Assembly: GCA_020137815.1 (NCBI GenBank)
Contig: CM035354.1
Coordinates: 186,001 to 250,000, forward strand
DNA: 64,000 nt
Direction of reading: 5' to 3'
Origin: Hormiphora californensis
Taxonomy: Eukaryota > Animalia > Ctenophora
Part shown: positions 19,664 to 63,860 of the stretch, piece by piece
Position numbering within the stretch: position 1 is the stretch's first letter
How the letters are laid out: each line of letters opens with the position of its first letter
The notes under the pieces: model-generated
Told to the model about the DNA's origin: nothing
The model's input: only the letters and a program-made list of their open reading frames with translations
The model's database searches: none
Position numbers and translations under genes: made by a program

Positions 19664-21017
19664 TCAATTCATTGTGTCTTTTCTCGATCTCTCAAAATAT
19701 GTGACATAACTTCCGGACATCTCTAAATCTTTTAATTTCGGCCCAAAACGTGAACTGTTCCTCAAAACCTTGTACAAACTAGAAAAGGGCCAAAACACAC
19801 ACAACCGATACACTGGTACGACCGTATAATGATACAGATCGTTCATAAACAGTCTACCTCGTGGTATTTCGTTGAGGGAGATCGTCCTTGAGTATGTCTC
19901 AGGAGGTGACGCTGCATCGACACCCCTCTCTTCCTCCCCCTGTAACTGTTTATATTGATCCTGGAGATGTGCTGTTATAGATCCAGGATCAGGCATGTAC
20001 AACCCAACCTCAAACACATGTAACCTCACCCCCTCAACCTCCAACTCTAACAGTGTTCCGGGTGGAGTACCGGGTGGAACATCCAACACCCTCCTCTCTC
20101 CAGTCAATAGTCTGAACATCCACCGACCCTCCCTGAACCAAGGTTGTGTAGTGGACATCAACCTTAGATTTGACATTGTCGTTAGCATCGTACCAATAGT
20201 TAGTAGCTTTGTGTATGTGTATGGTTATCAACATAGGAGACCCATCTATACCGGGACAATTCAACACTTGTCCATGCATGACACCCGGGGGTACCGATAC
20301 AGGGTGCCACTGAATTGACGTGACACGGCCCTTGCCCTGACAGTTGAAACACACCTCCGTTATCCGCCAACCCCTACCTCCACAGTCCCCACACCTATGA
20401 AACTTTGGGGCCTGTTTCACGATCTCATCAGGTAACATCCAGGCGAGATGACCCTCATTATCAACAGGAACCTCCCCGTTACCGTAACATCTCTCACATT
20501 CCACTCTCTGGTTAGGTGCAGCCCCCTCTGCAGTTCCCCACCCTTGACATTGAACACAGGATTGGTGGGTGTTGATCTCAATATACTTGGCGGCCCCCAA
20601 CACAGCCTCCATCATTGACACACCCATGATGTACTCACGGAGGTTGTCATTCTCGGCTGTGTACCCAAATCTAGAGGAGAACATCTCGTCAAAGTTCACC
20701 CCAAACGCTGATTTGAAGACAGATTCGGGGGATTCAGCGTGATATCCATCAGCCTTGTATACATGCTCCTCCTCCCCCAGATCTGCATCATATTCCTCTC
20801 TTAGTCTCCTGTCACTGAGAACTGTATAGGCGTTAGAAAGATCCTGGAATCGTTGTTTACTGTCCGTATCCGATCCAGCGACATCTGGATGGCACTTTTT
20901 GGCTGCAGCAAAGTAGGCAGCTTTGATTTCCTTAGGGGTAGCAGCTCGGGTCACACCAAGGGTGTCGTAGTGGGTGGAGAGGGATCTGGAGATGTGAATC
21001 AAGCGACGCAGTAACAT
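19664..21017 (-). CDS. Mitochondrial-type class A DnaJ (DNAJA3/Tid1-like), intronless CDS
   Basis: Arg-rich presequence MLLRRLIHISRS; J domain with HPD; four CxxCxGxG repeats; C-terminal VPPG motifs. One +1 frameshift near 20103 joins the two track ORFs. Confidence 0.85.
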
Positions 21018-21917
21018 AGGGACCTGGAGAGGGTGATAAGAAATAGGAATCAAGAAAGTTGGTAATTGGGGGGGGGGGGCAGGAGGATCCTTGTACGAAG
21101 GCAGAAAATACAACGTATTTTGTGGTATTTTAACATATGAAAAACGTACCGATCAAGTCTTATCTCTCTTCACTTAATTGATGTTATGTGCTCACTCAAG
21201 TCTCTGAATCTGCAGGTGAAACTAGTCACATTTTATTAACCTCTCTCTCTCTCATCACACGTTGGCATGACTTTGTTTGTCCCTCACACTGAAATACATC
21301 TCTCTTTCTGCCGGTTGTCGTCTCTCTCATTTTTGTATAACAGTTTCTTTCTCATTTGTATTTAAATCTAATTCAACTTTATACTTTACTACAAAAAGCA
21401 ACAGGAAACATCAATTTCTCCCATTCTCCGTGTGTGTAATATTGTATGAACATTGAACAACTCTGATCCTTAATTGCTGACCCCCTAGCTGTACATTAAC
21501 ATTGTAAACATATCTCACTCTGTTTCTCTCTCTCTATCTGTTTCTCTCTTTCTCTCTCTAGTCTCTCTCTCTTTCTCTCTCTAGTCTCTTTCTAGTCTCT
21601 CTCTCTTTCTCTCTCTAGTCTCTCACTCTCTCTCTTTCTCTCTCCACCCGGGGAGAATTTAAACTAAAACGCGATTATAAATCAGAGTTATTACAAATCC
21701 TAACTGTTCCCCAATTTCTCTCACACAGCAGAGAAAAAAAAGACAATTTTCTGGAATATAATATTGACCAAACTGACATCACAAAAAATCTGTCTCGTTT
21801 TGGGGGGAGCGAGTAAAATCAATGACAATGGACGCGTATATAATATAAGATCACAGGGGGGTGGATAACGGGCTTATTTAGTGACTCACACACATACTAA
21901 CATCACAGGGGGGTGGG

Positions 21918-29537: not shown

Positions 29538-32516
29538 TTACTCTTCATCACACATTTCCTCCCAGTTCTCTGCTACTTGTTTCGGATCCTGTAACACCAA
29601 ACTCTTCAACTCGGGTACCTCCTCCACAGCGGTACTCCTAGATCCCCCCGACACCGGTTTAGGGACAGGTTTGGAGCTCCCCACAAACGATCTCTTCACC
29701 AACATATACTGAGATAACTTCACCCCCGGGACTAGCGATTGGTAGTCAACCCTAATCTGAACATTCCTCTGGGGATCAGGATCAAAACTCTGGGTGGTGA
29801 TCTTGTAATGTTCCGCCAACTCGTGAACCAACCTCCTTTTGTCCTTGTTCATGGGCTTGAAATCATGGTAGATACAGCTAACCCTATTGAGGGAATCGGA
29901 TGTATCATTCCTCCGCTTATATTTGATGATCACTACCTCGAACTGTTCCTCAATCTCAATCACAAAGGACTTGTTAGAACGTGCCTGTTCCTTGAGGAAT
30001 TCACTGTAGTTTGGTGCCACAATGTTATCAACTGCAACATTAACCAACCCCAAACCCTCCGCCAACTTCCTATTTCTCTCCTCAACAAAACACGCCTCCT
30101 CACAGGGCACAGCTCCAGTTTTCATGTACTCAACAAGGTCAGCATGCAAAATGAACAGATTAGCACTCCGTAACTTTGTCATGAATTTCTTTGTATCTGA
30201 TGGGGCAAATGTAGCACCCTTGAAGCAGAGTATTGTAACCTTCCTCCTCTGACAGGGACATGTAACCGGCATCTTTGCGAAGCAAACAGTTTTGGGGCAC
30301 TCCGTACCCGGATGGCACTTTGCAGCACAGATGTGATCACACAGCTCCCTTTTTATTTTACAAGGTTTCTCACACTTGCCCGTGTCACAGGGGTCCTTGT
30401 GGCAGGGCCGTTCACACACATGCATGTCACAGGGTAGGGGCCGCTTGCAGGGCTCACCACAGGATATATCATTGAGATGACAAGGCACGTTATACCGGAC
30501 TTTGTGGCCTCCCATGCACAACTTGTTAACCAGTTGAACACACGGCGGGCAGGCGGGGTCGTAATGGCAGGTATGATCGAAGGGATGAGGGCATGAGTGT
30601 TCCCGTGTACAAGGTAGATCACACTTTGGAGGGGCAGTACCACATGCTATAGGTGGCTCTAACCGGGTCGCACCGCACGTGCAAAACACCTCACTAAAGT
30701 TGGACTCAAGACACGGCATACAATGTCCCTTGTGACAAAGGTCCTCACACTTGTGCTCTTGACACGAGAGGGTCTTCCCGCACGGGTACATGCACACATG
30801 GTTGTCCTCGAGACAGCACTCTATGGTACACCGATGTCGCCCACATGATTTCTTCTTGTAGCAGATCTTCCCACATCTGACACCCTCCGCAGGGATTTCA
30901 GAGCATGCAATGGATTGTGTGGTTATTTCACATCGACACGATACAACGGACTTGTCTTCACAGGAAGGACAGGGGCCCTCGTGACACAAAGACTGGCACA
31001 CATGGCCCGCCTCAGAGCCACATTCCAGGACTTTGCGGCAGATTTTCTTACACGTCGGAACTGGATCGAGACAGGAAGTCCTTGGGGTGGTCTGAAGTTT
31101 GTCTAATCGTGTCTTCCCACACGGACATGTAGTGGTGGATGTCACATCCGTGGGACATGGCGGACAGGGTCCACTGTGACAGGTGCGGTTACACGTGTGG
31201 TTACCGCACGACAGCAGTTGGTTGCAGGGTGTACCGCAACTCCAATAACCGACATGGGTGGATTTCTCACTTGACTTCTCCGTTCCACACACCAGACTTC
31301 TAACAGCACGGCCACAGTAACATGGTAACTCTCGTTGTACCTCACACGGTGCACATGTCCCGGGAGTGTGACATACCACGGTGCAGGTGTGAACCCCACA
31401 ATTGAGCGTCCTTCCACACACCCGATCACACCGGATAGCATCTTTTCGTTGAGAACACCTCACAGTGGATGACTGTACCCCACATTGACAGTGTGACGTC
31501 ACAAGGATAAGGCACTCGGGGCACTTTCCTGGGTGGCAGAACTGGGGGCAGGGATGTTTACAATTGGCTCTCACTCTGGAACACTTTTCTCCGCAGCTGT
31601 GGGGCAGGTTCAGGGGCGTGTACCTGGGGTTAATAACAGCTTCACAGAAACACACGTACCGCAGGGGAAGGTTAGCGGAGGGAACCTGACACGCCGGACA
31701 GGTCCAGTTGCGGGGAGTGTCCTCCCGGATTGGGACGGAGTCGTCATTCAGTTTAGCAGATGCCCACTGTCTCACACACGCCAGGTGGAAAATATTGTAA
31801 CATCGGAAACAAGAGTAAGTGGCACAAAATGCATTTATGTATTCGTAGCAAACCATGCATTCTGAGGTGTTGGACTCAATGTGACTACGCAATGATTCAG
31901 CTTGATCTTCGTAATCATAAATCCGTGGCACTTCTTTTCTAGGTTGCTTTGGTCGTGGCTTACCCCGACGGTTAGGTCTTCGATGCGAAACCTTTTCACC
32001 TGACCCATTTACTCCATTAGTGATTCCATTTTGATGCTCGGGACGGTGATTTGGCCCAGTTCCATTTTGATGCTCAGGACGGTGATGTAGTCCATTTTCA
32101 TTTTGATGCTCTGGACGGTGATGTGGAGGTCTATTTCCATTTTGATGCTCAGGACGGGGATGTTGCCTATTTCGATTTTGATGCTCGGGACGGCGTTTTG
32201 GCCCATTTTCATTGAAGTGCTCAGGTCGGCGATGTTGCCCATTGCCATTTTGATGCTCGGGACGGCGATGTTGCCCACTTTCACTTAGGTGCTCAGATCG
32301 GTGATGTTGCCCATTGCCATTTTGATGCTCGGGACGGCGATGTTGCCCACTTTCATTTTGATGCTCAGGACGGCGATGTTGCCTACTTTCAGTATTGCTC
32401 ACAGGACGTCGATACGTGTCACGATGGCCTCCACGATGCGGCCCAAGATCACGATATCGTCCTCTCTGGGGTCGGCGGTTTGACGATGAGTCATCTCCTC
32501 CACTGTTCTCTGACAT
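29538..32516 (-). CDS. NFX1: NFX1 / shuttle craft (RING/PHD, NF-X1 zinc fingers, R3H), single coding exon
   Basis: CMVC...CFRCYNIFHLACVRQWA...WTCPAC; repeated CGxHxCxxxCHxGPC fingers; R3H-like PMNKDKRRLVHELAEHY. Start placed at the first in-frame ATG (32516). Confidence 0.95.
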   Translation of the reverse strand: MSENSGGDDSSSNRRPQRGRYRDLGPHRGGHRDTYRRPVSNTESRQHRRPEHQNESGQHRRPEHQNGNGQHHRSEHLSESGQHRRPEHQNGNGQHRRPEHFNENGPKRRPEHQNRNRQHPRPEHQNGNRPPHHRPEHQNENGLHHRPEHQNGTGPNHRPEHQNGITNGVNGSGEKVSHRRPNRRGKPRPKQPRKEVPRIYDYEDQAESLRSHIESNTSECMVCYEYINAFCATYSCFRCYNIFHLACVRQWASAKLNDDSVPIREDTPRNWTCPACQVPSANLPLRYVCFCEAVINPRYTPLNLPHSCGEKCSRVRANCKHPCPQFCHPGKCPECLILVTSHCQCGVQSSTVRCSQRKDAIRCDRVCGRTLNCGVHTCTVVCHTPGTCAPCEVQRELPCYCGRAVRSLVCGTEKSSEKSTHVGYWSCGTPCNQLLSCGNHTCNRTCHSGPCPPCPTDVTSTTTCPCGKTRLDKLQTTPRTSCLDPVPTCKKICRKVLECGSEAGHVCQSLCHEGPCPSCEDKSVVSCRCEITTQSIACSEIPAEGVRCGKICYKKKSCGRHRCTIECCLEDNHVCMYPCGKTLSCQEHKCEDLCHKGHCMPCLESNFSEVFCTCGATRLEPPIACGTAPPKCDLPCTREHSCPHPFDHTCHYDPACPPCVQLVNKLCMGGHKVRYNVPCHLNDISCGEPCKRPLPCDMHVCERPCHKDPCDTGKCEKPCKIKRELCDHICAAKCHPGTECPKTVCFAKMPVTCPCQRRKVTILCFKGATFAPSDTKKFMTKLRSANLFILHADLVEYMKTGAVPCEEACFVEERNRKLAEGLGLVNVAVDNIVAPNYSEFLKEQARSNKSFVIEIEEQFEVVIIKYKRRNDTSDSLNRVSCIYHDFKPMNKDKRRLVHELAEHYKITTQSFDPDPQRNVQIRVDYQSLVPGVKLSQYMLVKRSFVGSSKPVPKPVSGGSRSTAVEEVPELKSLVLQDPKQVAENWEEMCDEE
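32030..32410 (-). repeat. 36-bp coding tandem repeat (~10 x HRRPEHQNGNGQ) in the NFX1 N-terminus
   Basis: Visible in both the DNA and the translation. Confidence 0.9.
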
Positions 32517-32829
32517 AAATTGTTTTTTAAGCCTTTCTAGAGAGTTTAAGTTATTAAAACAAGGCTTGGCAGCAGTAAATGATGATAGGTGAGGCCTCAC
32601 ATACACGTAAAGTTGTCTAAAAAACTAGGTATCCGAAACGCAAAAAAGGAAGCGAAAAAAGTGTGGGCCCCAAACGAGAAAATTTGAAATTTTTAAAGAT
32701 TTTAGAAATTGAAAAGCGCAGCGCGCACATTTTGCAGCGCATAATTGAATATTTTCGCGTGTTCTTTTTTCCTGTTTTAGCTTTTTTATTTGATTTTCAA
32801 AAATTTCGCGGTTGTTTTTAATTTTGTCT

Positions 32830-48475: not shown

Positions 48476-50583
48476 CTTCTCTCTAGCTTTCTCTCTCAAA
48501 TATGAAACAAAGTAGAATTCCCTATTGCTTTATAAAGCTGTCAATATATGAAACCACTCTAGCTCTCACAGGTATCTCAGCAGCTTCACTTTGAAGGGTT
48601 AGGTACTTATACTTTCATCACGTTTTTAATTGTTGACTCAACAACTCAACAATGTTGTGGGTTACTAAACAAGTTTTTAGAGCAACTCTGAGGAAGTCAT
48701 AGAAAGTGGATAACCAATCCTGGTTAGGAGAGTGGATATATTCGAGAGGGAGAGATGATGGGGAGATAGAGAGTGGTGAGTGCAGGTGGCATTCCCAACT
48801 AACTACAACCATGGGTAGAGCGTGGTGAGTGCGTGACCAATCACAACATATAATACTAGGTAACTAAATGTTACTTCCTCAGCTCACTAATAGGAATTAA
48901 ATATATTCGCTAAATACTTCCTCGATTTCTCAGACATATAATCATGCAACCAACAGATGCGCAGGTTTTTTAGTATCACTGCGCTGGCAAGCGCAGAGGT
49001 TGCCATCCCCCCAAAGTCCCACCAGAAACGCAGTTATACGTTTTATGGGTGTTTTGGCTGAAAACCCAAATTTCAGAAGGCTATTATAGTGTTCCTCAGG
49101 AACGTTCTACACGTTATCTCTAAGAAACAACTTAGTCAGGACACTCCAAATATTCAGGAAGGAATCATTGCCCAATATACCAAATGAAGATGATCAAAAA
49201 AATTTTTTGACAAAAAATATAACCTAAGCTGCAGACACCGCTAGAGAACCATAACCGGAGATGTGATTTGATTGAAAATATCCAGAGAAATGTATGAATG
49301 ATAAATCACGCACTATTTTCGTGTCGATACTCTCTCTTATTGTCACTATTTGAATTCACTGCAAGGTGGTATAATATGTGGTACCAGCTATAAGGAATTA
49401 CCAAAACCTATCCTATACGTGTAATTCTCACCTAGAATCTAGATAGGGCCGCCTGCTCCTGGGCAAAATATTATTAATTATAGTAAAGCACATGTATTAT
49501 GTACGTGTTTTCTAGGTGAATGATGCGACTCACCAACAGCTCTTTAATAGCCCTTACCGCTGGTCTTGATCACTACTGTTATAGTGTAACACGGATCTTA
49601 TTTGAAAGAAATAAGATTGAGAATGAGATCAGGGCCTGACGTATAATGTGATCCTTGCTGAGCGATTTTGGTATAGCAGCCCTCACGGCTCACCCTTGAT
49701 TGCAACATAAATGATAAACGAGGAAATATTATAAAAACTATATATTTGTCTTTCATGTTATACCAGGGGGGAGAATTTGTCAAAGTATTAAACGACACAG
49801 ACTGCTCGATTTCCTCAATTTGTCACAACGATCTCTCCTGTTTTTATTTCCTCGACTGAGGTCAAAATATATGTTACAACAAACCCGCCGCCCGCCAAGA
49901 CTGAGTGGTATATTATACCGAGGATCCTGGCCAGGCAGGTCCGAGCCTTGGTGACATAGACACCGTGCGCGACCAAGATTGAGCTCACACAGGTCGCGCC
50001 AGGTGTCTATATGTCACCAAGTCAGGCAGGTCAGAGCCTGCAACTGACCCGTTCACATACTAAACAACATGATATATAGTAGTGACGACATGTGTCATTA
50101 TCAAGGAACTCTCTAAGGAAGCAGCAACAAAATAAAAACTCCTTGACAAGTCCTTGACAACAACAAGAAACTAAAATACTGGATTTCCTTTACCAACATT
50201 TTTTAGTTATCCCATTCAGGGTGGCTCGATTGAACGTGACCCAGTAAAAACATATCAAGAACCTTAACATGCACTAACACGGGATTAATGAAAGCTTGAA
50301 ATTTCTCGACTACTGCATAACCAGTAGGGTGTGCTATTTCAAATTTTTTTCGACTAGGCCATTCAGTATCTAGCTAATGTGAAACTATGGAAAATTCTCT
50401 ATCACATCAGCAAAACAGAATCGGGATAGTGTTTGTCAGTTACGTTGGCATCGCGATTTAAAAAGTGTAGTTTCTAACCGAAAAATGGTAAATACAGGAA
50501 ATATGTGTGGTTTTCACCAGTTTTTGACATGTTCTTGATATCACCTTTTTATGGTCAGGATTGTGTTCAGCACCTCGAAACTG

Positions 50584-50893
50584 GGGATGGAATGGTAGTG
50601 ATGTGGTGCTGAACTGAGCTTCGCTCTTCTTGGCGCCATATCACTGCAAGCCCGATCAGTCAACCTCCGCGTCGGTCCATCCTGGAAACGTACTCCGCGT
50701 GTATGGTCCGGTTTTTTGCTCGGGGTTGGGTGGTCTTTGGCCTTGTTATGGGTGGTCGTGCTCCTGGTTCCGGCCGAGATGGGCTCTCTGTCTTGGCGGG
50801 GACTGGGGTCCGGTCGTCTTGGGCGGGGTCGGGGTCTTCCCTGTCCGTCGGGTGGGGGATCGGGCTGTGTGCGTGTTGTGCGGCTAATGACTG
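50584..50893 (+). ncRNA. HDV-like self-cleaving ribozyme with extended J1/2 and P4
   Basis: P1 GGGATGG 50584-90 / CCATCCT 50677-83 (G.U at position 1); P2 CAGTCA 50657-62 / TGACTG 50888-93; P3 ACC/GGT; P1.1 CC 50667-68 / GG 50684-85; P4 base CGTAC/GTGCG; J4/2 G-C(50884)-TAA. Confidence 0.85.
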
Positions 50894-51754
50894 CGGACGT
50901 GAGCTGCTATCTCCCATTAAGGGAGTAAATTAAACGCCAGAGAACTAGCCTCGCTCAATATTGGCACCGAGGGCCTCTGCCTTGTAGGCATGCCTGTTGA
51001 CCCGGCAGCTGTAGCCTTTAAGACAGCCCTTCAGTCCAACATACCATTGGTAGGACGGAGGTTACCTTCTCTCGCAAAAAATAGGGGTTATTCCCCTGGG
51101 GAACCTCTGCCCAAATTTTTGCCACATACTACCTTTGCAATATCTCGCAAATTAAAAATCAAATATTCCACTGCACGGACTACTATACTGCTGGAAAACC
51201 TACTACAGGCTACCCAAACTAAACCAAAGAAGTATTAGTTTTTTGATTCCGAAAATATGCCTAAATTCAAATTCCTCTCTCAGTCCTAGATGTCCTTGCA
51301 AACACAGCGAATAATATATATGTACTCCAATCTGCTTCAGATTGAGAGATAAGGATATGTGATCCGTAAAGCCTACTCACAGGAGGGCGCGAAGATACTT
51401 TTATAGAGCTAAATACATCACCCGAGTATCCGATAATGGATAAAGCAATGATCATCCTTATCGTAGTCCCGTAAATAGGAAGATGAACTAATCAAATAAC
51501 ACCACAAGCCACTACGCGATATCAACCACCGAGATTTGTAGTTTAAATTAAGGCCTAGCGGCCTCCTAATCGCATTAACAAATACACAAATAATGACAGG
51601 CTAGACAACCACTCGGCACATATCTCCCCCTATAGCAACCTACATGACTCTGTTTTCGTAAGCCCTGCAACAGTTGAGTACCACTTCTACTACTCCTCCT
51701 CGCACCAGTCCACATGGTACGCAAACCACTGTGTACCACCGCGAGTAACCCAGA

Positions 51755-51890
51755 CACAATTGGCACTCCGGCCGGTGACCTAGTCACAATTGGAACACCG
51801 CCAGTGATCCAGTCGCAATTGGAACCCCGCCAGTGACCCAGTCGCAATTGGCACCCCCGCCAGTGACCCAGTCACAATTGGCACCCCTGT
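51755..51890 (+). repeat. ~29-bp tandem repeat (GTCRCAATTGGMACCCCGCCAGTGACCCA), ~5 copies, inside retroposon A
   Basis: Direct observation. Confidence 0.85.
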
Positions 51891-52556
51891 CACACATGAC
51901 ACATTACACAAACTGTACTGCTTCGGCAGTGCATATACCAAACCTAACCTCGCATGGCAAAATGTAGCCTAAACAATTGCAATCCCCCCGCCAAAATCTA
52001 TGATCTGAAGAGTATTCACGAATACGAGGGGGAAATACTTATGGTGTTAATATGATCGATAAGAGCCCGTGACCACCGGGCAGGTCGAGGTCAACAGGAC
52101 CACCTACGGCCAGACATCTCTGGAGACATTAGAAAACGCAAAGTGCCGCCTCTGGAAGCTGATACTTAGCAAATGCTTGCCAGTGTGAATCGATTTAAAG
52201 CTACCGCTATTGGAAAATAGTCGCCGGACTCCCAGGCCGTAGGCAGATCTGTCATACTAAGGGTACCGACCCAAAGCCTGAGATGTGTAAGATACGTTGT
52301 CAGCGACACCGTAGTCCGCTACAGTGAACCATCGTTACATCGTATCCGGCAACCCACCTACTTCTACAGTTGCTTGCAACAGTAGTAACCAGAGACCAGT
52401 CACTCGGACAGGTAAATTCCGCCACTGTCCTTGTAATAGACGGGCGTCTACTTCCTTCGTATGCAATACCTTTCTCGCGGTGCCAAACAGGGCAGGGGGG
52501 AACTCAGCGGGCAGCAAGGAGGGGGGAGTAATGTGCCACTCTGCGATGCAGCGTGT

Positions 52557-54027
52557 GTGTGTGTGTGTGTGTTTTGCACCGCCCGTCATTCCTCCCACTT
52601 TACTGCCCCACAATGGTCGGCAGACAACCTATATTAATATCACTCTTCGCCACCGTCCCCCACACGTAGGGATAATGTTGATGTTGTTCCGGTTTGGGTC
52701 CTGGTATTTTGTCGAGCAAGCTCAACATTTCCCTCGAACCTTCGCCGGCATCACAAGAAGAGTATTTGATACAGTGAATCTAATATTAGACTGACATACC
52801 TATATTGTCAGGACAATGGATGGAATTTACCTGTCTCACAGACTGGTCTTTGGTTACTACTGCTCCAGGGAGCTGTAGAGGTAGGTGGGTTGCCGGATAT
52901 GACAATACCGTGGGTTCACCATCTAATCGGTGACGGCTGAAATATCTTATCACACCTCAGGTCTTTGGTCAAAACCGCTAGCAGTACTTATCAGCATGCA
53001 ACCTGGGGGTCCGGACAGCTAATTTCTTAGCAAGCACAGATAAGCATGAAAAACGCTTATGTAAACTTCTGGTGAGCATTTGGCAAATTATCAGCTCCCA
53101 GGGGTTGCACTATTGCGGGGTAATTACTTGCCATACGGCGGAGGTGGCCCTTTGTTATGGCCCAGACCTGCCCTACCTTAATCGTGGGTCCCTTATGATG
53201 TGGTTTTGTTGGAATTCCCCGGCCGTAGCGATTCTTGCCCTGTGGTTTGCTACTTCTTTCAGGTCGGGATGGTTGGGGATGGTTTAATCGAATAGGTTAC
53301 TTTTGGCTATTAGTTTGGAGAATTTTACCAAATCAAGTGTGTTGCTTGATCTGTTTGTTAGTGAGGAGGATTGTTCTAGATATATTGCAAAGGTAGTATG
53401 TGGCAAAAATTTGGGCAGAGGTTCCCCAGGGGAATAACCCCTATTTTTGCGAGAGAAGGTAACCTCCGTCCGACCAATATGGGATGTTGGACAGGAGGGC
53501 TGTTTTAAAGGCTACAGCTGCCGGGTGATTACAAATCATGGGTTGCCATAATTGAGGGAGGCTAGTTCTCTGGCGTAGAATTTACCCCCATAATTAAATG
53601 GGAGACAGCCGAAGGGTCATCAGGCATGCCTAGTAGGCAGAGGCCCTCGGTGATTACAAATCATGGGTTGCCATGTGTAACAAGGTTACTGGCTGGGGTG
53701 AGATTATCAGTTCAACCGGGATCCCCACTAAGACTCAGCCCGACGACCGACCGACAAACGATCGATCAACGACTGATATCAATCGTCAACCAACCGCTCA
53801 TCAATCGACCGCCGAACCAAATCCCAGCAGGGACCAGCCGCACTGCAAGAGCTCGGTGCCATAGTTGAGTTCGGCAAGGTCTCTGGCAAAGTTTACTCCC
53901 CAAGATTGGGGAGAGAGCCGGTGTGATTTGACCGTAATCACTGGACCATCAGCCAACCAGGTCCACGGCAACGGGACTGAGCTCGAAGAACTCAGCTGGC
54001 ACGAAGAACCTGAGTTCCCCCCGCTGA
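52557..54027 (-). mobile_element. Retroposon copy B (1471 bp), inverted, inserted in the 5' LTR
   Basis: 14-bp TSD GCGATGCAGCGTGT (52543-52556, 54028-54041); (TG)n at the left end; inverted homology to 50905-51150, 52230-52420 and 57870-57980. Confidence 0.88.
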
Positions 54028-54398
54028 GCGATGCAGCGTGTCACATAAGTATACCGCGTTAGTTAGGGAGATGTGAAAAACTCCCTATAGCGCAGTTCTC
54101 TTCTGACTTCTAGAGTTCTGTTCTAACCTCAACAACTGACAGTTCTCCTCTATCTCTGCTCATATTATTATACAGTAGCTTACAAGTGTTAAGTGTGATT
54201 TGAGAGTTCATGTGAGATAGACTTTTTACTTTGACCCAAAACAAAACCCCGTGCTTGAGTTACTGTGTACTTTGTCTCATGAACCATGTCTGACCACGTA
54301 CCGCCCCCCAATCCAACCCCTACAAATGGTGGCATCGGTGGGATGATTGATCAAAGCACTATAATACGGTCGAGATCGGAGAATCGAGATCTGAAACC

Positions 54399-55292
54399 GT
54401 GCCAGCTCCTAAGGATGCTGAGTCTGATAATGAGTTGTTGAATGAACTTCTAGCCGATCTTCCAGAAGAGAGAAAGGCCGCAATAATTGCCCTCATTGGA
54501 AATGGAATCCAGAACAGAGGTTCCCTAGTGAACTTTGAAACTGACCACGAACCTATTCCCCAAGTTGAAGATGATATGCTCCTAGCTAGAAGTGTTAGAA
54601 GACTTTCTCGATTTGATCCAAACTCCGTTACTATACGAAGGTTTATAATCATGTATGAAACATACTCTGCTGCTATGGGTCTGTCTGAAAAACAAAAGAT
54701 TGACTTGTTTGTTACTTACCTCGATGGAAAATTACAGGAAAAACTCCTGACCGCTACGTCATTGAATTCTGACAGCTGGGAAGACTACAAGAACTCCCTA
54801 ATTAAGTTCCTTGAGGACCACTCTCGTCGTAATGCAGTCACCGCCAGAATCCAGATTAAACGTGCTAAGCAGAAGGTGACAGAGACGGTATTCGAGTTCG
54901 CAGACCGACTACAGGAGCTCTCTATGATAGGCTACCCTGCTTCAAGTGAGTTGAATAACCTTGCGATCAAAGAAAAGGTTTTAAAAGATGCACTAGCATC
55001 AGGTGTTAGAGATGATGATATTGGAATTGAATTGATGGTGATGATTGAGACCTCTACGTATGACCAGCTTCTCCAGGAAGCCCTGAAATTAGAATTATCT
55101 ATATCTACCAGATCTGGATTTCATACAATTGGAGCTGCAGCAGTAATAACTGTAGGATACTCTGGTGACACAGACTACAGTCCTATTCCAGAAATAGAAA
55201 ACTACCCTGGATCTGGAGTTTCTCAGAACCCTGGAGATCCTACGTCAGACTCTGATGACGAATATATTCGAGAAATAATTGATATGGATTAG
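54399..55292 (+). CDS. Gag-like (capsid) ORF of the LTR element
   Basis: Directly after the PBS; WEDYKNSLIKF, KQKVTETVFEFADRLQEL, KDALASGVRD fit the retrotransposon gag pattern. No pol follows. Confidence 0.78.
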   Translation: MPAPKDAESDNELLNELLADLPEERKAAIIALIGNGIQNRGSLVNFETDHEPIPQVEDDMLLARSVRRLSRFDPNSVTIRRFIIMYETYSAAMGLSEKQKIDLFVTYLDGKLQEKLLTATSLNSDSWEDYKNSLIKFLEDHSRRNAVTARIQIKRAKQKVTETVFEFADRLQELSMIGYPASSELNNLAIKEKVLKDALASGVRDDDIGIELMVMIETSTYDQLLQEALKLELSISTRSGFHTIGAAAVITVGYSGDTDYSPIPEIENYPGSGVSQNPGDPTSDSDDEYIREIIDMD

Positions 55293-58200
55293 TATGATAC
55301 CATACCAACATGTCAACATGACACTATCGATGAAGTATGTAGTTTTGATGAATGATGACGTGATACACGTCTCTATCACTATCTGTACGTGTCTTTGAAC
55401 TTGTGTGTACAATGCAAAAGTTGCAGCTGTACCTACTGTGTAAATCTTGCCGAACCGTCAAATATAACTTATCTTGTACTCTCAAGTGACAAGTGAATGT
55501 GAACTTGTCAACAGAGTGTTACCTAGACAGTTGCCGAACCGGATCTCTGAACAGTAAAACTGTTTATAACTGTCCTTTTCCCTTGATCCATGGGACCTCT
55601 CGAAGTGATGCAGTGACGAGTGATAGTGCTAATCTATGATCTTGTGTCACTGGTGTTTGTTCCCTTCCTAAAATGTAAAGAATTTACACTTATAACGGCA
55701 CCTAGCTACCGAACCGGTATCGGATAATGTATAAGACTTGTAGGCAGGTATGGATGACTTGTGTTGTAATCGTTTATATCAAGTGGAAATGATTGGATCC
55801 TCAATCTATTTCTCAAGATAGAACCAAAAGTTCCCATTACTTATTGGTGAGTGTCTCACTCCCCTGTAAACATGTTTGTAAATGGCAGGGTTTACCAAGA
55901 TTGTGACTACACATTTGCTTGGTAAAGTGATGAGAAGTATACTTCTTGTGATGTTGCTGTTATCCGATTGTAGATATGCAGTAACACTGCAGGGTTTGTT
56001 GTGCTCTGTTAGTAGCTATAGAGCCACTGTCTATTTGAATCACTGTAGACCATGAAAATATTTGTTTGAGCAACCTGCTCAATTCTTGGCAATACTAGAT
56101 GCTGTTGTGGCTTTGTGACCTATGTTGTGGAACGGAGTCCCTCGAACTCTTAGTTTGTGCATCTATGGACTTTATTCAGCTGCAAAGCATTTACTTTAGA
56201 TGGGAAAATACGGCTGTAATTAAATACAGTTGTGTTTAGCTGCTACCCGCGTAGTATGCAGTTTTGCGGTGAATCTAGATGTATGACATCTTTTAGTTGT
56301 GTCCTACTGCTAAGAGAGCGGTATATATTAATATCTAGACACATTTGACTCAGAGAACCTCTGAGATGTGATTTGGGGGCCCCAGATCATTCCTTTGGAT
56401 CGTAGCTGTGCTGGAATTGCTACTGAATTTTTAGGATACCATCCTACTTGGACCACCTGAAATTTGGTGATGACGGCGGGATATGGCTAGACCAGCCATG
56501 TTTATCCCAGAATATTCGATACGATGAGTTGACAGATACTGTCAATAACATTGGTACTAAGTATGAACTTCTACGACACCTCGTGCTTGTTTCTGACGCC
56601 AGTCGAAACACGTGATAACGACTTTCTCAGAAAGTCTTTCTGCTTTCAACTCAGTTGAATGTTCTCAACACCTGATGGAAAATCTGTCGGTGTCAGAGAT
56701 GAGAAACTCTCTCAAAAAGTGTTGAAATGGATAAGTTCCTGTGAGGTGCAATGGACGGACAATAAAGAAGATATAAGAAGAGGAAACATTCCTGCGAGAT
56801 AAAATGACCGTGAAACACGATGACAACCCCGTTTTTGAAAAAATGGGTGGGACAGCTTCGAACAAGCTGCAAGGAACTTGCTGACACGTGAATCTAAATG
56901 AAGTTTTAGAAACGATGTAAACGAGTCACTGGCTGCTGAGGGACAGGCTAATAACTTTCTGAGGAGGGGAAGATGTGTAATGTCAACAAAATATGTATGA
57001 AATGGGTCAACGAAAAAAATGAATGAAACGAATTATGAAACGAATGAAACGAATTATGAATTATGAATGATATGAATGGATGATAATAAAGCTTAGGTAC
57101 GTACGAGCTGGTGTAGCTAATGTAGTGCACCAGTAGGGCGAGTCAGATGTGATTCCTTGGTGGTGTTGATCTTCTGGTGGCTGCTGAGACCCGCTACTCT
57201 AGGTGGTCACTGTGGATCATAAGCGGGCACTTCTTTGGACATCCAGATGACTTATCCCTTTGGATGAATGATGATGATAATAGCAAGATACAAGATCCCT
57301 CTCCTGATTAAGTACCCTTACGCTCCTGTCTCTCCAATGTTGAATGAACTGTAGCTGTAAAGTGATGTGTACTGACTACTGATTGTAGAAGGACTTTATG
57401 AATGATATTTATTAGACAATATTATTAGAGACAATGCAAGTTCCTGCCCCATGATTTACTTCTCTTGCAAGGAGGGGAAGTGTGTGCCACTCTGCGATGC
57501 AGCGTGTCACATAAGTATACCGCGTTAGTTAGGGAGATGTGAAAAACTCCCTATAGCGCAGTTCTCTTCTGACTTCTAGAGTTCTGTTCTAACCTCAACA
57601 ACTGACAGTTCTCCTCTATCTCTGCTCATATTACTATACAGTAGCTTACAAGTGTTAAGTGTGATTTGAGAGTTCATGTGAGATAGACTTTTTACTTTGA
57701 CCCAAAACAAAACCCCGTGCTTGAGTTACTGTGTACTTTGTCTCATGAACCATGTCTGACCACGTACCGCCCCCCAATCCAACCCCTACAGTAAGATCCC
57801 CTATCCCCTCTGCGCGGCCTGCTGGACGAACCCAGGCTCGACCTGGAGAACACCGACACGTGACCTTTTTGTGTGGGGACATGTGGCGAGAGGTGAATTC
57901 CTAGGGGCAGGCTGTCTCGTCTTACATGACAGCTAAGTGGGTCGGAATGTTGGGAGGTACTAAACACACACACACACACACACCTCGAAACTGACAGGAA
58001 TTGATATGCATCATTAAATGATGCTAAAGTTCATTTTTGACCTAAAAATGTTCATTTTTGACAAAAAATGTTCATTTTGGACATGTTCTTCAATTTTGAG
58101 AGCTTTTTCGTGAACGGGATCGTGTTCCGCAGGCCAAAATTAGTCGATTACAACCGAAATTTGCTTTCCACCAAGAAAAAACTAAAAAAAATTAAAATTC

Positions 58201-60283: not shown

Positions 60284-61616
60284 ATGATCAGTTTTGAGGA
60301 GATATGTTCGCTTACAGATATCCGAGAGGCTGTTTCAGAGAAACACAAACTCACAGTCGGTGATCCCTCGATTAAGATCGTATCCTTCCAGTCGGAGTCC
60401 ATACTCTTCTGCTGCCTGATCGAGGGTACATCAGACGGGGCTATTCACACTATCTTTGGGAAGTTTAACATCTTTGACAAGACTACAGAGGATATCTATA
60501 CTCATCCAGATCCAATTGATGTCTTGGTCGCTTCCCTAAACCAAGATGCCAACTTGCTGAGTAAGGGGGCTTCCGGGGGCTTTCTTTTTACACCATTGAT
60601 TTGGTGTCATCTTGCTGTATTAGCAGTTATTAATTAATTAATTAATTAACTTTATTCTCTCAGTTTTTGCTCGAAGAACTTCCAGCAGGGGAGCAAGTTC
60701 CAAATCCTTTCTGGTGGACTTACTAAAAAATAAGTTATTCGATCTGAAAATTGAAAACACCGTCCATCAACAGCTAACAGTAAGTTTATCCGTAACTCAA
60801 GATCAGTTAATTAATCTCCGTTGTTTTACAGATCAGAACTTTTAGAATTCTTCAGACTTGCACATTTTCCTAGTTAAAATCTGTTTCAGTTTCTGCCCTG
60901 GAGGAATGCCAGAGAACGTGGCAAGCGGAAGGAGCATCTTGTATTCTTTGTTGAAAAACGACAACTTGGTGTCTTGCACATCTTCACCATTGAGAACGAT
61001 TCCGGGGTAGGATTGTAGCAGGAACCGACCGAATCAGGAAATACTGGTCCCTGATTGGCTGATAACCAGTCACGTGACCTAAATAACGAGTTCTGATTGG
61101 TTGTTTACTTGTTTCGGTCGGTTCCTGGATTGTAGTTATCTAGCAGATCTGTCATTGGTGGTCACTAGTTGAGAGTTGTTTTGCTGCCCTTCACGCAGGA
61201 GTTGTAACTGCGTCACTAGCATCCGACATTACACACTAATGACGATTGACGTCATTACACAATAATTTAGTTATACTCACTGGGAATGTAATATCTAATT
61301 GCTATCACAGTTGTTGGTAATGAAATTACCCATCAACGTGAGCGCCCGGAGGTAATATAGGGGTGACTTGGTAACCAATCACAATTGTATTCACTGATTA
61401 TGCGGCTAATAAACAATCAAACGATCCTTATTATTCTCCCCCAATCACAATTCATCAATTGTAACCATGGTAACAGCTTTCTTCCACACACAGGCCATGG
61501 AGGTGCAGCAGATGCAGAAGGAGTCCCTGGTTCAACACTACATCTGGTACCAACTGGATGTCCACTCTAAGAGACTCTACTACATCTACCTGCAACAACA
61601 GGAGATGTCAGGACGG
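60284..61616 (+). CDS. GSAP: Gamma-secretase-activating protein (GSAP/pigeon) homolog, 5' exons; continues beyond the window
   Basis: HTIFGKFNIFDKTTEDIYTH...VASLNQDANLL, EHLVFFVEKR and HYIWYQLDVHSKRLYYIYL parallel recalled GSAP segments (e.g. FVWAQWDMSEQRLYYIDL). Confidence 0.72.
61019..61127. mobile_element. 109-bp hAT-type MITE, copy 5
   Basis: TSD GATTGTAG (61011-61018, 61128-61135). Confidence 0.9.
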
Positions 61617-63860
61617 GTTAGTGGAGTGTGGAGGGACGGGTTAGTGGGGTATTGAGGGACGGGTTAGTGGGGTATTGAGGGACGGATTAGTGGGGTATTG
61701 AGGGACGGGTTAGTCCCTGGTTCAACACTACATCTGGTACCAACTGGATGTCCACTCTAAGAGACTCTACTACATCTACCTGCAACAACAGGAGATGTCA
61801 GGACGGGTTAGTGGAGTGTGGAGGGACGGGTTAGTGGGGTATTGAGGGACGGGTTAGTGGGGTATTGAGGGACGGGTTAGTGGGGTATTGAGGGACGGGT
61901 TAGTCCCTGGTTCAACACTACATCTGGTACCAACTGGATGTCCACTCTAAGAGACTCTACTACATCTACCTGCAACAACAGGAGATGTCAGGACGGGTTA
62001 GTGGAGTGTGGAGGGACGGGTTAGTGGGGTATTGAGGGACGGGTTAGTGGGGTATTGAGGGACGGATTAGTGGGGTATTGAGGGACGGGTTAGTCCCTGG
62101 TTCAACACTACATCTGGTACCAACTGGATGTCCACTCTAAGAGACTCTACTACATCTACCTGCAACAACAAGAGATGTCAGGACGGGTTAGTGGAGTGTG
62201 GAGGGACGGGTTAGTGGGGTATTGAGGGACGGGTTAGTGGGGTATTGAGGGACGGATTAGTGGGGTATTGAGGGACGGGTTAGTCCCTGGTTCAACACTA
62301 CATCTGGTACCAACTGGATGTCCACTCTAAGAGACTCTACTACATCTACCTGCAACAACAGGAGATGTCAGGACGGGTTAGTGGAGTGTGGAGGGACGGG
62401 TTAGTGGGGTATTGAGGGACGGGTTAGTGGGGTATTGAGGGACGGATTAGTGGGGTATTGAGGGACGGGTTAGTCCCTGGTTCAACACTACATCTGGTAC
62501 CAACTGGATGTCCACTCTAAGAGACTCTACTACATCTACCTGCAACAACAGGAGATGTCAGGACGGGTTAGTGGAGTGTGGAGGGACGGGTTAGTGGGGT
62601 ATTGAGGGACGGGTTAGTGGGGTATTGAGGGACGGATTAGTGGGGTATTGAGGGACGGGTTAGTCCCTGGTTCAACACTACATCTGGTACCAACTGGATG
62701 TCCACTCTAAGAGACTCTACTACATCTACCTGCAACAACAGGAGATGTCAGGACGGGTTAGTGGAGTATTGGAGAAGGAAGGAAGGGAGGGAAGGACGAG
62801 TTAGTGGAGTGTGGAGGGACGGGTTAGTGGGGTATAAAGGAAGGGAGGGATACCCACTCTAAGAGACTCTACTACATCTACCTGCAACAACAGGAGATGT
62901 CAGGACGGGTTAGTGGAGTGTGGAGGGACGGGTTAGTGGAGTGTGTAGGGACGGGTTAGTGGGGTATTGAGGAAGGAAGGAAGGGAGGGAAGGACGAGTT
63001 AGTGGAGTGTGGAGGGACGGGTTAGTGGGGTATAAAGGAAGGGAGGGATACCCACTCTAAGAGACTCTACTACATCTACCTGCAACAACAGGAGATGTCA
63101 GGACGGGTTAGTGGAGTGTGGAGGGGCGGGTTAGTGGAGTGTGTAGGGACGGGTTAGTGGGGTATTGAGGAAGGAAGGAAGGGAGGGAAGGACGAGTTAG
63201 TGGAGTGTGGAGGGACGGGTTAGTGGGGTATAAAGGAAGGGAGGGATACCCACTCTAAGAGACTCTACTACATCTACCTGCAACAACAGGAGATGTCAGG
63301 ACGGGTTAGTGGAGTATTGAGGAAGGAAGGAAGGGAGGGAAGGACGGGTTAGTGGGGTGTGGAGGGACGGGTTAGTGGGGTATAAAGGAAGGGAGGGATA
63401 CCCACTCTAAGAGACTCTACTACATCTACCTGCAACAACAGGAGATGTCAGGACGGGTTAGTGGAGTGTGGAGGGACGGGTTAGTGGAGTGTGTAGGGAC
63501 GGGTTAGTGGGGTATTGAGGGACGGATTAGTGGGGTATTGAGGGACGGATTAGTGGGGTATTGAGGGACGGGTTAGTCCCTGGTTCAACACTACATCTGG
63601 TACCAACTGGATGTCCACTCTAAGAGACTCTACTACATCTACCTGCAACAACAGGAGATGTCAGGACGGGTTAGTGGAGTGTGGAGGGGCGGGTTAGTGG
63701 AGTGTGTAGGGACGGGTTAGTGGGGTATTGAGGAAGGAAGGAAGGGAGGGAGGAGTTAGTGGAGTGTGGAGGAAGGGAGGGACGGGTTAGTGGAGTGTGG
63801 AGGAAGGGAGGGACGGGTTAGTGGGGTGTGGAGGAAGGGAGGGACGGATTAGTGGGACGA
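61524..63860 (+). repeat. Tandem array of the 3' part of a GSAP exon plus G-rich intronic 20-mers
   Basis: 190-bp units at 61524, 61714, 61904, 62094, 62284, 62474, 62664; four shorter variants; another full copy at 63577. Confidence 0.95.

Follow-up and report, generated by a model that had tools for sequence, protein, structure and literature searches.

What is the sequence between positions 50584 and 50893 in this repeat-rich stretch of Hormiphora californensis DNA (64,000 nucleotides, 44% G+C; hereinafter, the window), by what machinery would it have been mobilized, and why does one of its arms contain so little adenine? The explanation that we consider fairly probable is that this sequence heads a 2.1-kb non-coding, CA-tailed ctenophore retroposon assembled from both ends of a LINE of the RTE type, that the head is a predicted HDV-like ribozyme, and that the P4 rod of this ribozyme has been edited by ADAR.

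The 310-nt region 50584-50893 (+ strand) contains all helices and core bases of an HDV-type double pseudoknot, in nested order; its assignment as a predicted HDV-like ribozyme draws on a descriptor scan, folding, shuffles and the 5' ends of other copies. P1 (50584-50590/50677-50683, 7 bp) opens with the pair G50584.U50683, and a G.U opening pair in P1 is a trait of the HDV-like ribozyme family. P2 (50657-50662/50888-50893) consists of six pairs, all Watson-Crick, whereas P3 (50663-50665/50674-50676) has three and is capped by an L3 loop of 8 nt that starts with U-C-C and has a G as the sixth base, with U50666 and G50671 as the candidates for the L3 U.G pair. P1.1 joins the CC at 50667-68 with the GG at 50684-85, J1.1/4 is 3 nt long, all A, and the base helix of P4 (50689-93/50878-82) is followed by J4/2, G-C50884-U-A-A, which includes the predicted catalytic base C50884 and the constrained A. 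These are the features that characterize HDV-like ribozymes, namely five helices, nested order, the U.G pair in L3 and the catalytic C (PMC3774820), and the claim of a preliminary description of this DNA, that all parts of the double pseudoknot are present in order, holds for each of them. Two dimensions given there need adjustment. J1/2 is indeed 66 nt long, but the hairpin within it, described as having ~66 nt, spans only 53 nt (50595-50647, + strand; 22 pairs: 10 G-C, 7 A-U and 5 G.U); the ~185 nt said to be enclosed by P4 agree with the 184 nt inside its base helix, but these form a continuous rod rather than a loop.

The predicted cut is located immediately 5' of G50584, and this base is, as originally proposed, the first one past a 13-bp TSD (50571-50583, + strand) that has an exact twin at 57981-57993 (+). 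Between the TSD copies lie 7,397 bp, but subtraction of a nested LTR element leaves 2,134 bp for the element proper. The latter ends with a 3' region (57795-57963, +) followed by a CA tail (57964-57980, +) that continues into the CAC with which the TSD opens. The nested LTR element (52532-57790, +; 308-bp LTRs with one difference, 4-bp TSD GTAA) contains a weak gag-like ORF (54351-55292; PF03732, E=0.003) and no ORF of RT length, and is very young and probably non-autonomous; the polypurine tract of this element has a look-alike in the 14 bases that precede its 5' LTR. Inside that 5' LTR lies a second, sister CA-tailed element (52557-54027, - strand) with a 14-bp TSD (52543-52556/54028-54041). 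The main and sister elements are colinear in three blocks, with 82%, 70% and 66% identity, respectively: a 5'-UTR core (50906-51146, +), a second common block (52137-52438, +) that shows no sign of coding, and the 3' end. Both insertion sites in the window start with (A)CAC and so extend the tail, which fits pairing between the tail and the target. Pairing of the two ends of the element exceeds all 30 shuffles in one of the four tests (-37.4 vs -30.8, sd 2.5) and does not in the other three. CA-like sequence also occurs at 48651 and 59405, but neither spot is an end of the family. Within the main element, 51735-51887 (+) comprises five copies of a 29-bp unit. In the sister element, a predicted pairing connects the first 37 bases to 53590-53700, a segment that shares a 13-mer with 52495-52507 (+) in the main element.

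Could the fold be a product of chance, or the whole arrangement an assembly chimera? A core descriptor that allows long J1/2 and P4, the check suggested in the preliminary description, matches once in the window, with both strands scanned, and does so at 50584. A looser descriptor has 87 matches among 1,476 sequences shuffled by dinucleotide (0.059 for each window), so that chance does not explain a match that coincides with the edge of the TSD. A skeptic could still point out that this amounts to matches in 6% of the shuffled windows and that 7.4 kb of sequence, other repeats included, separate the TSD copies, but every nested insertion has its own TSD, and the empty site together with the repeated exact 5' ends in independent sequencing runs (see below) refute this explanation, the probability of which we consider negligible. 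A search of Rfam yielded no ribozyme match up to E=10, only weak matches to microRNAs or snoRNAs; this silence is likely due to the insertions of 66 and 184 nt, and a match to an Rfam model is not what defines the fold. The core pattern has no matches in viral contigs and 10 matches in metagenome contigs, none of which have the full fold or are similar to the element, and these were dismissed as chance occurrences.

Additional copies of the element come from contigs of sequencing runs. Eleven listed runs, none recorded as RNA, contain part of the ribozyme, and the depth of a contig in these runs does not equal copy number. Two contigs of run X1 represent the empty site, joining 50583 directly to the letters after 57993. 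Among the 16 upstream loose ends listed, 10 are at 50584 (six in X9, three in X11 and one in X8, where X9 and X11 come from one sample), and the agreement of the flanks at these ends is only 0.49-0.59; X1 contributes two further contigs ending at 50584. The other six ends listed are at 50585 (1), 50586 (3), 50593 (1) and 50636 (1). Thus, the same exact 5' end recurs with other flanks and the empty target is observed; together with the longest stop-free sense stretch of 108 codons in the element and the lack of Pfam matches in five of its frames, this bears out the earlier view of a full-length, non-coding, multi-copy element. Copies that start at 50586 (50586-50663; runs X9, X11 and X5) have the same upstream letters in organisms A and C, and the one in X9/X11 (a 1,753-nt contig) has 6 nt inserted 3' of P2, and its P3 is broken; these copies may represent a fragment of the ribozyme that became fixed in a different context. 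Further downstream, loose ends at 51139-51143 delineate at least three subfamilies that have the 5'-UTR core in common and diverge just past it, and one of these may lead into an autonomous element. The target itself (about 50450-50583 and 57994 onward) is a high-depth repeat in organisms A, B and C.

The ribozyme family is common to at least two organisms. At least 13 substitutions are listed at a frequency of 1% or more in 50576-50716, of which 11 are in the J1/2 hairpin, one just 3' of it and one in P2. No change at or above 1% is listed in P3, in P1.1 or in the 3' strand of P1, except for gaps in one contig, and since changes near contig ends are unlisted, this invariance of the core pertains to the parts other than the 5' strand of P1. 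There is a single contig, in X5, that breaks P2 and has two gaps in L3/P3. With the core nearly invariant, no compensatory double change in P1-P3 appears among the changes listed. In the main stem of J1/2, three of the four listed changes keep the pair; the fourth, T50641C, yields A.C unless there is an unlisted change in the partner, and accounts for 17,149 of the 17,162 depth units in X9, being common in organism C. In the same organism, three joints skip 120, 160 and 181 nt of P4 without disturbing its base helix or J4/2; in the comparison that includes these joints, 40 of the 69 substitutions are listed.

Folding calculations are where the case for a functional ribozyme meets some resistance. 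The folding z-score of the ribozyme is -7.3, and a fold constrained to P1, P3 and P4 is 4 kcal/mol above the free minimum, with P2 and P1.1 left uncounted. That minimum pairs 50652-50656 with 50671-50675 (5 bp) in competition with P3, and when the flanks are included, the non-pseudoknot minimum loses P1. One could accordingly argue that the fold is a relic, with cleavage blocked by the P4 rod or by the competing 5-bp helix that replaces P3 and with copying from the element's own promoter, and it agrees with this argument that the sister element contains no HDV fold detectable by either descriptor. We regard such decay as quite improbable given that at least two organisms have this family, in which no pair of P1, P2, P3 or P1.1 and no core base is lost, that the 5' ends are exact, and that active R2 ribozymes have a highly variable P4 (PMC3774820). 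In R2 ribozymes, J1/2 ranges from 23 to more than 700 nt, but J1/4 has only 0-2 nt (PMC3774820). The present ribozyme is very probably active.

Which enzymatic machinery, then, would move this element? It does not appear to encode its own: searches of Pfam with 60 frames of the window (14 plus 46; low-complexity frames excluded) yielded no RT or endonuclease domain, and protein searches with two frames of the element found no RT-bearing partner; they yielded either nothing or a 121-aa frame that belongs to another copy and a tandem-repeat frame of a sponge, which lacks RT. The sponge frame, from Ephydatia muelleri (P0016, E=1e-9), is matched by a frame in 52137-52438 (+), which hints at an old non-coding module common to several phyla. 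The relevant precedent comes from the RTE clade, in which the 5'-UTRs contain a conserved domain, in two copies in some elements; the same domain is also reported in one Ingi and one R4 element (Kojima 2018, PMC5786205). According to the same source, RTE, Ingi, Vingi and R2 are the only clades known to yield ORF-less elements that retain both ends, and the retention of the 5' end is connected with the self-cleaving ribozymes of RTE, Ingi and R2. RTE elements terminate in simple repeats (PMC2887409). The ordered motifs of the RTE 5'-UTR (from the supplement to PMC5786205) match at 50925-50966 (+) and 53544-53585 (-), with 0.02 matches expected, a value to be read with the qualification that these are short ordered motifs only and that the pattern was picked after both sequences had been viewed. 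This RTE-type module is directly 3' of the ribozyme, in one copy in the main element and in two recognizable copies in the sister element. The alternative identities considered for the module were the hammerhead, twister and pistol ribozymes, the cores of which did not fit by eye, and Rfam yielded none of them.

Thus, the element combines a TSD and a microsatellite tail, no ORF for RT or endonuclease, and a 5'-UTR domain of the RTE type recognized at the level of motifs, the traits of bipartite RTE elements. Most likely, judging from these sequence features, it is a non-autonomous derivative of two ends of an RTE LINE, that is, an element of an already described kind. The RTE machinery itself is, with good probability, the driver. 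A LINE of another clade that has the same 5'-UTR module (Ingi/Vingi, R4 or yet another) is the alternative, and a rather unlikely one. It is made conceivable by the presence of the RTE-like domain in one Ingi and one R4 element, and by the match consisting of short ordered motifs with no alignment to a partner, but RTEs are where this domain typically occurs, in two copies in some of them, as in the sister element, and RTE is among the four clades that yield ORF-less two-ended elements (PMC5786205). R2 SIDEs are defined by insertion into 28S rDNA, and here, a search of 49500-58100 for rRNA yielded no match and the flanks differ among the copies.

A further feature of the ribozyme is the P4 rod (50689-50882, +). 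Of its 83 pairs, 39 are G-C, 38 G.U and only six A-U, and there are seven A in 194 nt (3.6%), compared with 29% in the rest of the main element. The sister element contains a rod as well (53722-53833, -; 54 uninterrupted pairs: 23 G.U, 19 G-C and 12 A-U), which is not homologous to P4; outside the rods, A makes up 29% of the main element and 27% of the sister element. The predicted energy of the P4 rod is -107 kcal/mol for the sense RNA, compared with -35 for the antisense RNA and -21 for the DNA. When the G.U pairs are reverted to A-U, the G+C content of the two rods becomes 47% and 38%, in the vicinity of the 44% of the window, whereas reversion to G-C gives 93% and 79%. P4 contains eight symmetric mismatches, all of them other than A.C, and the sister rod is free of mismatches; the decay of a DNA palindrome would produce A.C as often as G.T, so that the absence of A.C counts against such decay. 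Decay of CpG was rejected as the source of the G.U pairs (27/64 vs 32/63, no CpG signal). In three further long hairpins of the window, G.U accounts for 0-4 of the 40-58 pairs. An excess of G.U on one strand without A.C, and a loss of A that is limited to duplexes, are the marks by which A-to-I editing by ADAR can be recognized.

The sequence context of the remaining adenines provides additional, modest evidence. ADAR prefers U or A on the 5' side and avoids a 5' G in all metazoans examined, disfavors a 3' U in most of them, and edits mainly young repeats, in a ctenophore too (PMC9989829); the ctenophore Pleurobrachia bachei carries an ADAR2-like gene (PMC4323055). In the two rods, with the J1/2 hairpin left outside the pool, there are 83 purines opposite U, of which 19 are still A. 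These surviving A follow G in 14 of the 19 cases (null 9.2, sd 2.1, p=0.016) and are in the context G-A-U in nine (null 4.9, p=0.021), whereas for A after G in P4 alone, p=0.27, and a test restricted to unambiguous neighbors gives 6/22 vs 4/37 (p=0.15); the p-values of these four statistics are uncorrected. At diverged contig ends, A is seen by eye at the G.U sites 50697, 50705, 50711, 50723 and 50880 and at the G-C site 50699, a weak observation. No unedited source of either rod was found within the window when de-edited sequences were used.

Variation among the copies indicates that editing is not the whole story. Among the 15 changes listed in P4, seven keep a pair (five C/U and two A/G), two break one and six are at unpaired sites; with seven of the nine changes at paired sites keeping the pair, selection for pairing also appears to be at work. 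Five of the seven pair-keeping changes that separate subfamilies are C/U, a type that ADAR does not make, which counts against ADAR as the sole maker of the rod. It is therefore conceivable that the element is an active HDV-headed retroposon the rod of which arose without ADAR, through ordinary transitions combined with selection for RNA pairing, or through selection against a DNA palindrome; the large difference between the energies of the sense RNA and the DNA suits selection against DNA hairpins, and the context signal of ADAR is modest. We nevertheless consider this version of events unlikely, if less so than a non-RTE driver: selection for pairing alone would not replace A-U with the weaker G.U (6 vs 38, in a genome with 44% G+C), A is depleted in duplexes only, CpG is not enriched, and the other long hairpins of the window have few G.U pairs. 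The composition of the rods points to ADAR editing, fixed through reverse transcription, as the likely origin of the A-poor P4 rod, and the chance that ADAR plays the main role in it is, in our estimate, somewhat better than even. The broader proposition, in which ADAR in the germ line introduces heritable mutations into a family of ctenophore retroposons that is still active, appears evenly balanced. If so, it would have converted to G.U about 86% of the A-U pairs of P4 and two thirds of those in the unrelated sister rod, leaving the catalytic core intact, and the end state would be a long duplex in RNA that offers ADAR hardly anything more to edit and has ceased to be a palindrome in DNA.

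The life cycle that we envisage combines these elements with steps drawn from R2 SIDEs (PMC3414825) and from a review (PMC6765202). A host transcript would read through the element, and the ribozyme would fold and cut before G50584, as suggested by the biology of R2, L1Tc and RTE. An RTE protein supplied in trans would then nick the target and reverse-transcribe from the CA tail, leaving a TSD of 13-14 bp. P4, a peripheral arm that the fold tolerates, would at one time have turned into a long inverted repeat, and its long duplex would make a substrate for ADAR, with the short core helices spared. RT would read inosine as G, so that over rounds of mobilization, 38 of the 44 purines opposite U would have become G; selection on the pairing of the sense strand presumably acts as well because C/U wobble changes separate the subfamilies.

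Ribozyme-headed non-autonomous derivatives of LINEs (SIDEs, NARTc and two-ended RTEs) are a known arrangement. The closest counterparts are the bipartite ORF-less RTE LINEs, which likewise have a TSD, a microsatellite tail, a conserved 5'-UTR domain and no ORF but, in the examples considered, are about 0.2-0.6 kb in size, compared with the 2.1 kb here; the long G.U rods also set the present element apart, and no ctenophore is named among those examples (PMC5786205). R2 SIDEs and R2/R1 hybrid SIDEs are also non-autonomous and have an HDV-like head, which cleaves in vitro in their case and is predicted to do so here, but they are specific to rDNA and carry poly(A) or R1 tails, unlike this element with its CA tail and varied flanks (PMC3414825). 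L1TcRz, at position +1 of the trypanosome LINE L1Tc and its short partner NARTc, with a TSD of about 12 bp, is a compact HDV-like ribozyme of 77 nt, as opposed to the 310 nt in the present case, with insertions in J1/2 and P4 (PMC3383444, PMC3185411, PMC4035085, PMC6765202). The R2 ribozymes likewise have five helices, the U.G pair in L3 and the catalytic C, and tolerate a long J1/2 as well as variation in P4; they differ in the junction preceding P4, which has 0-2 nt as against 3 nt in J1.1/4 here, and an 83-pair wobble rod is not among the structures described for them in PMC3774820. For the editing, the parallel is with the avian retroviruses RAV and ALV, where ADAR-type A-to-G changes clustered in an inverted repeat were recovered after reverse transcription, as proposed here; those, however, are single viral variants with about 50% of the A changed, whereas here a multi-copy germ-line family would have about 86% (38/44) changed, in the arm of a ribozyme (PMC12925331). 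These avian cases were the only ones of editing fixed in DNA retrieved in our literature search (PMC12925331), and the search for a ribozyme-headed non-autonomous LINE in ctenophores, with Repbase and subscription journals outside its scope, retrieved none.

With this element, the known ribozyme-headed, ORF-less arrangement would extend to the ctenophores, which are one of the two groups that branched off first in the animal tree, and the natural variants of P4, from about 17 to 194 nt, are test material for the tolerance of the HDV fold to peripheral RNA. If the rod is a fossil of editing, a mobile ribozyme has acquired heritable changes by way of RNA editing, and the tree of the copies would allow such events to be dated and counted. 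If the notion of a germ-line ADAR mutator is true, such editing could be what allows elements to carry long inverted repeats.

Apart from these elements, the window contains several apparent host genes. A long uninterrupted ORF at 20034-21152 (-) encodes a DnaJ protein that is 96% identical to a Pleurobrachia bachei protein in EukProt, with the next relatives at 47-61%, which points to a ctenophore of the Pleurobrachia type as the host, and another such ORF, at 29538-32624 (-), encodes an NFX1-type protein. Exons of HECT, adaptin, kinase and LIM proteins are found elsewhere in the window. The region 61522-63733 is a G-rich 190-bp satellite with a 23-bp subunit, and the GC skew in the last 2 kb of the window is 0.49.
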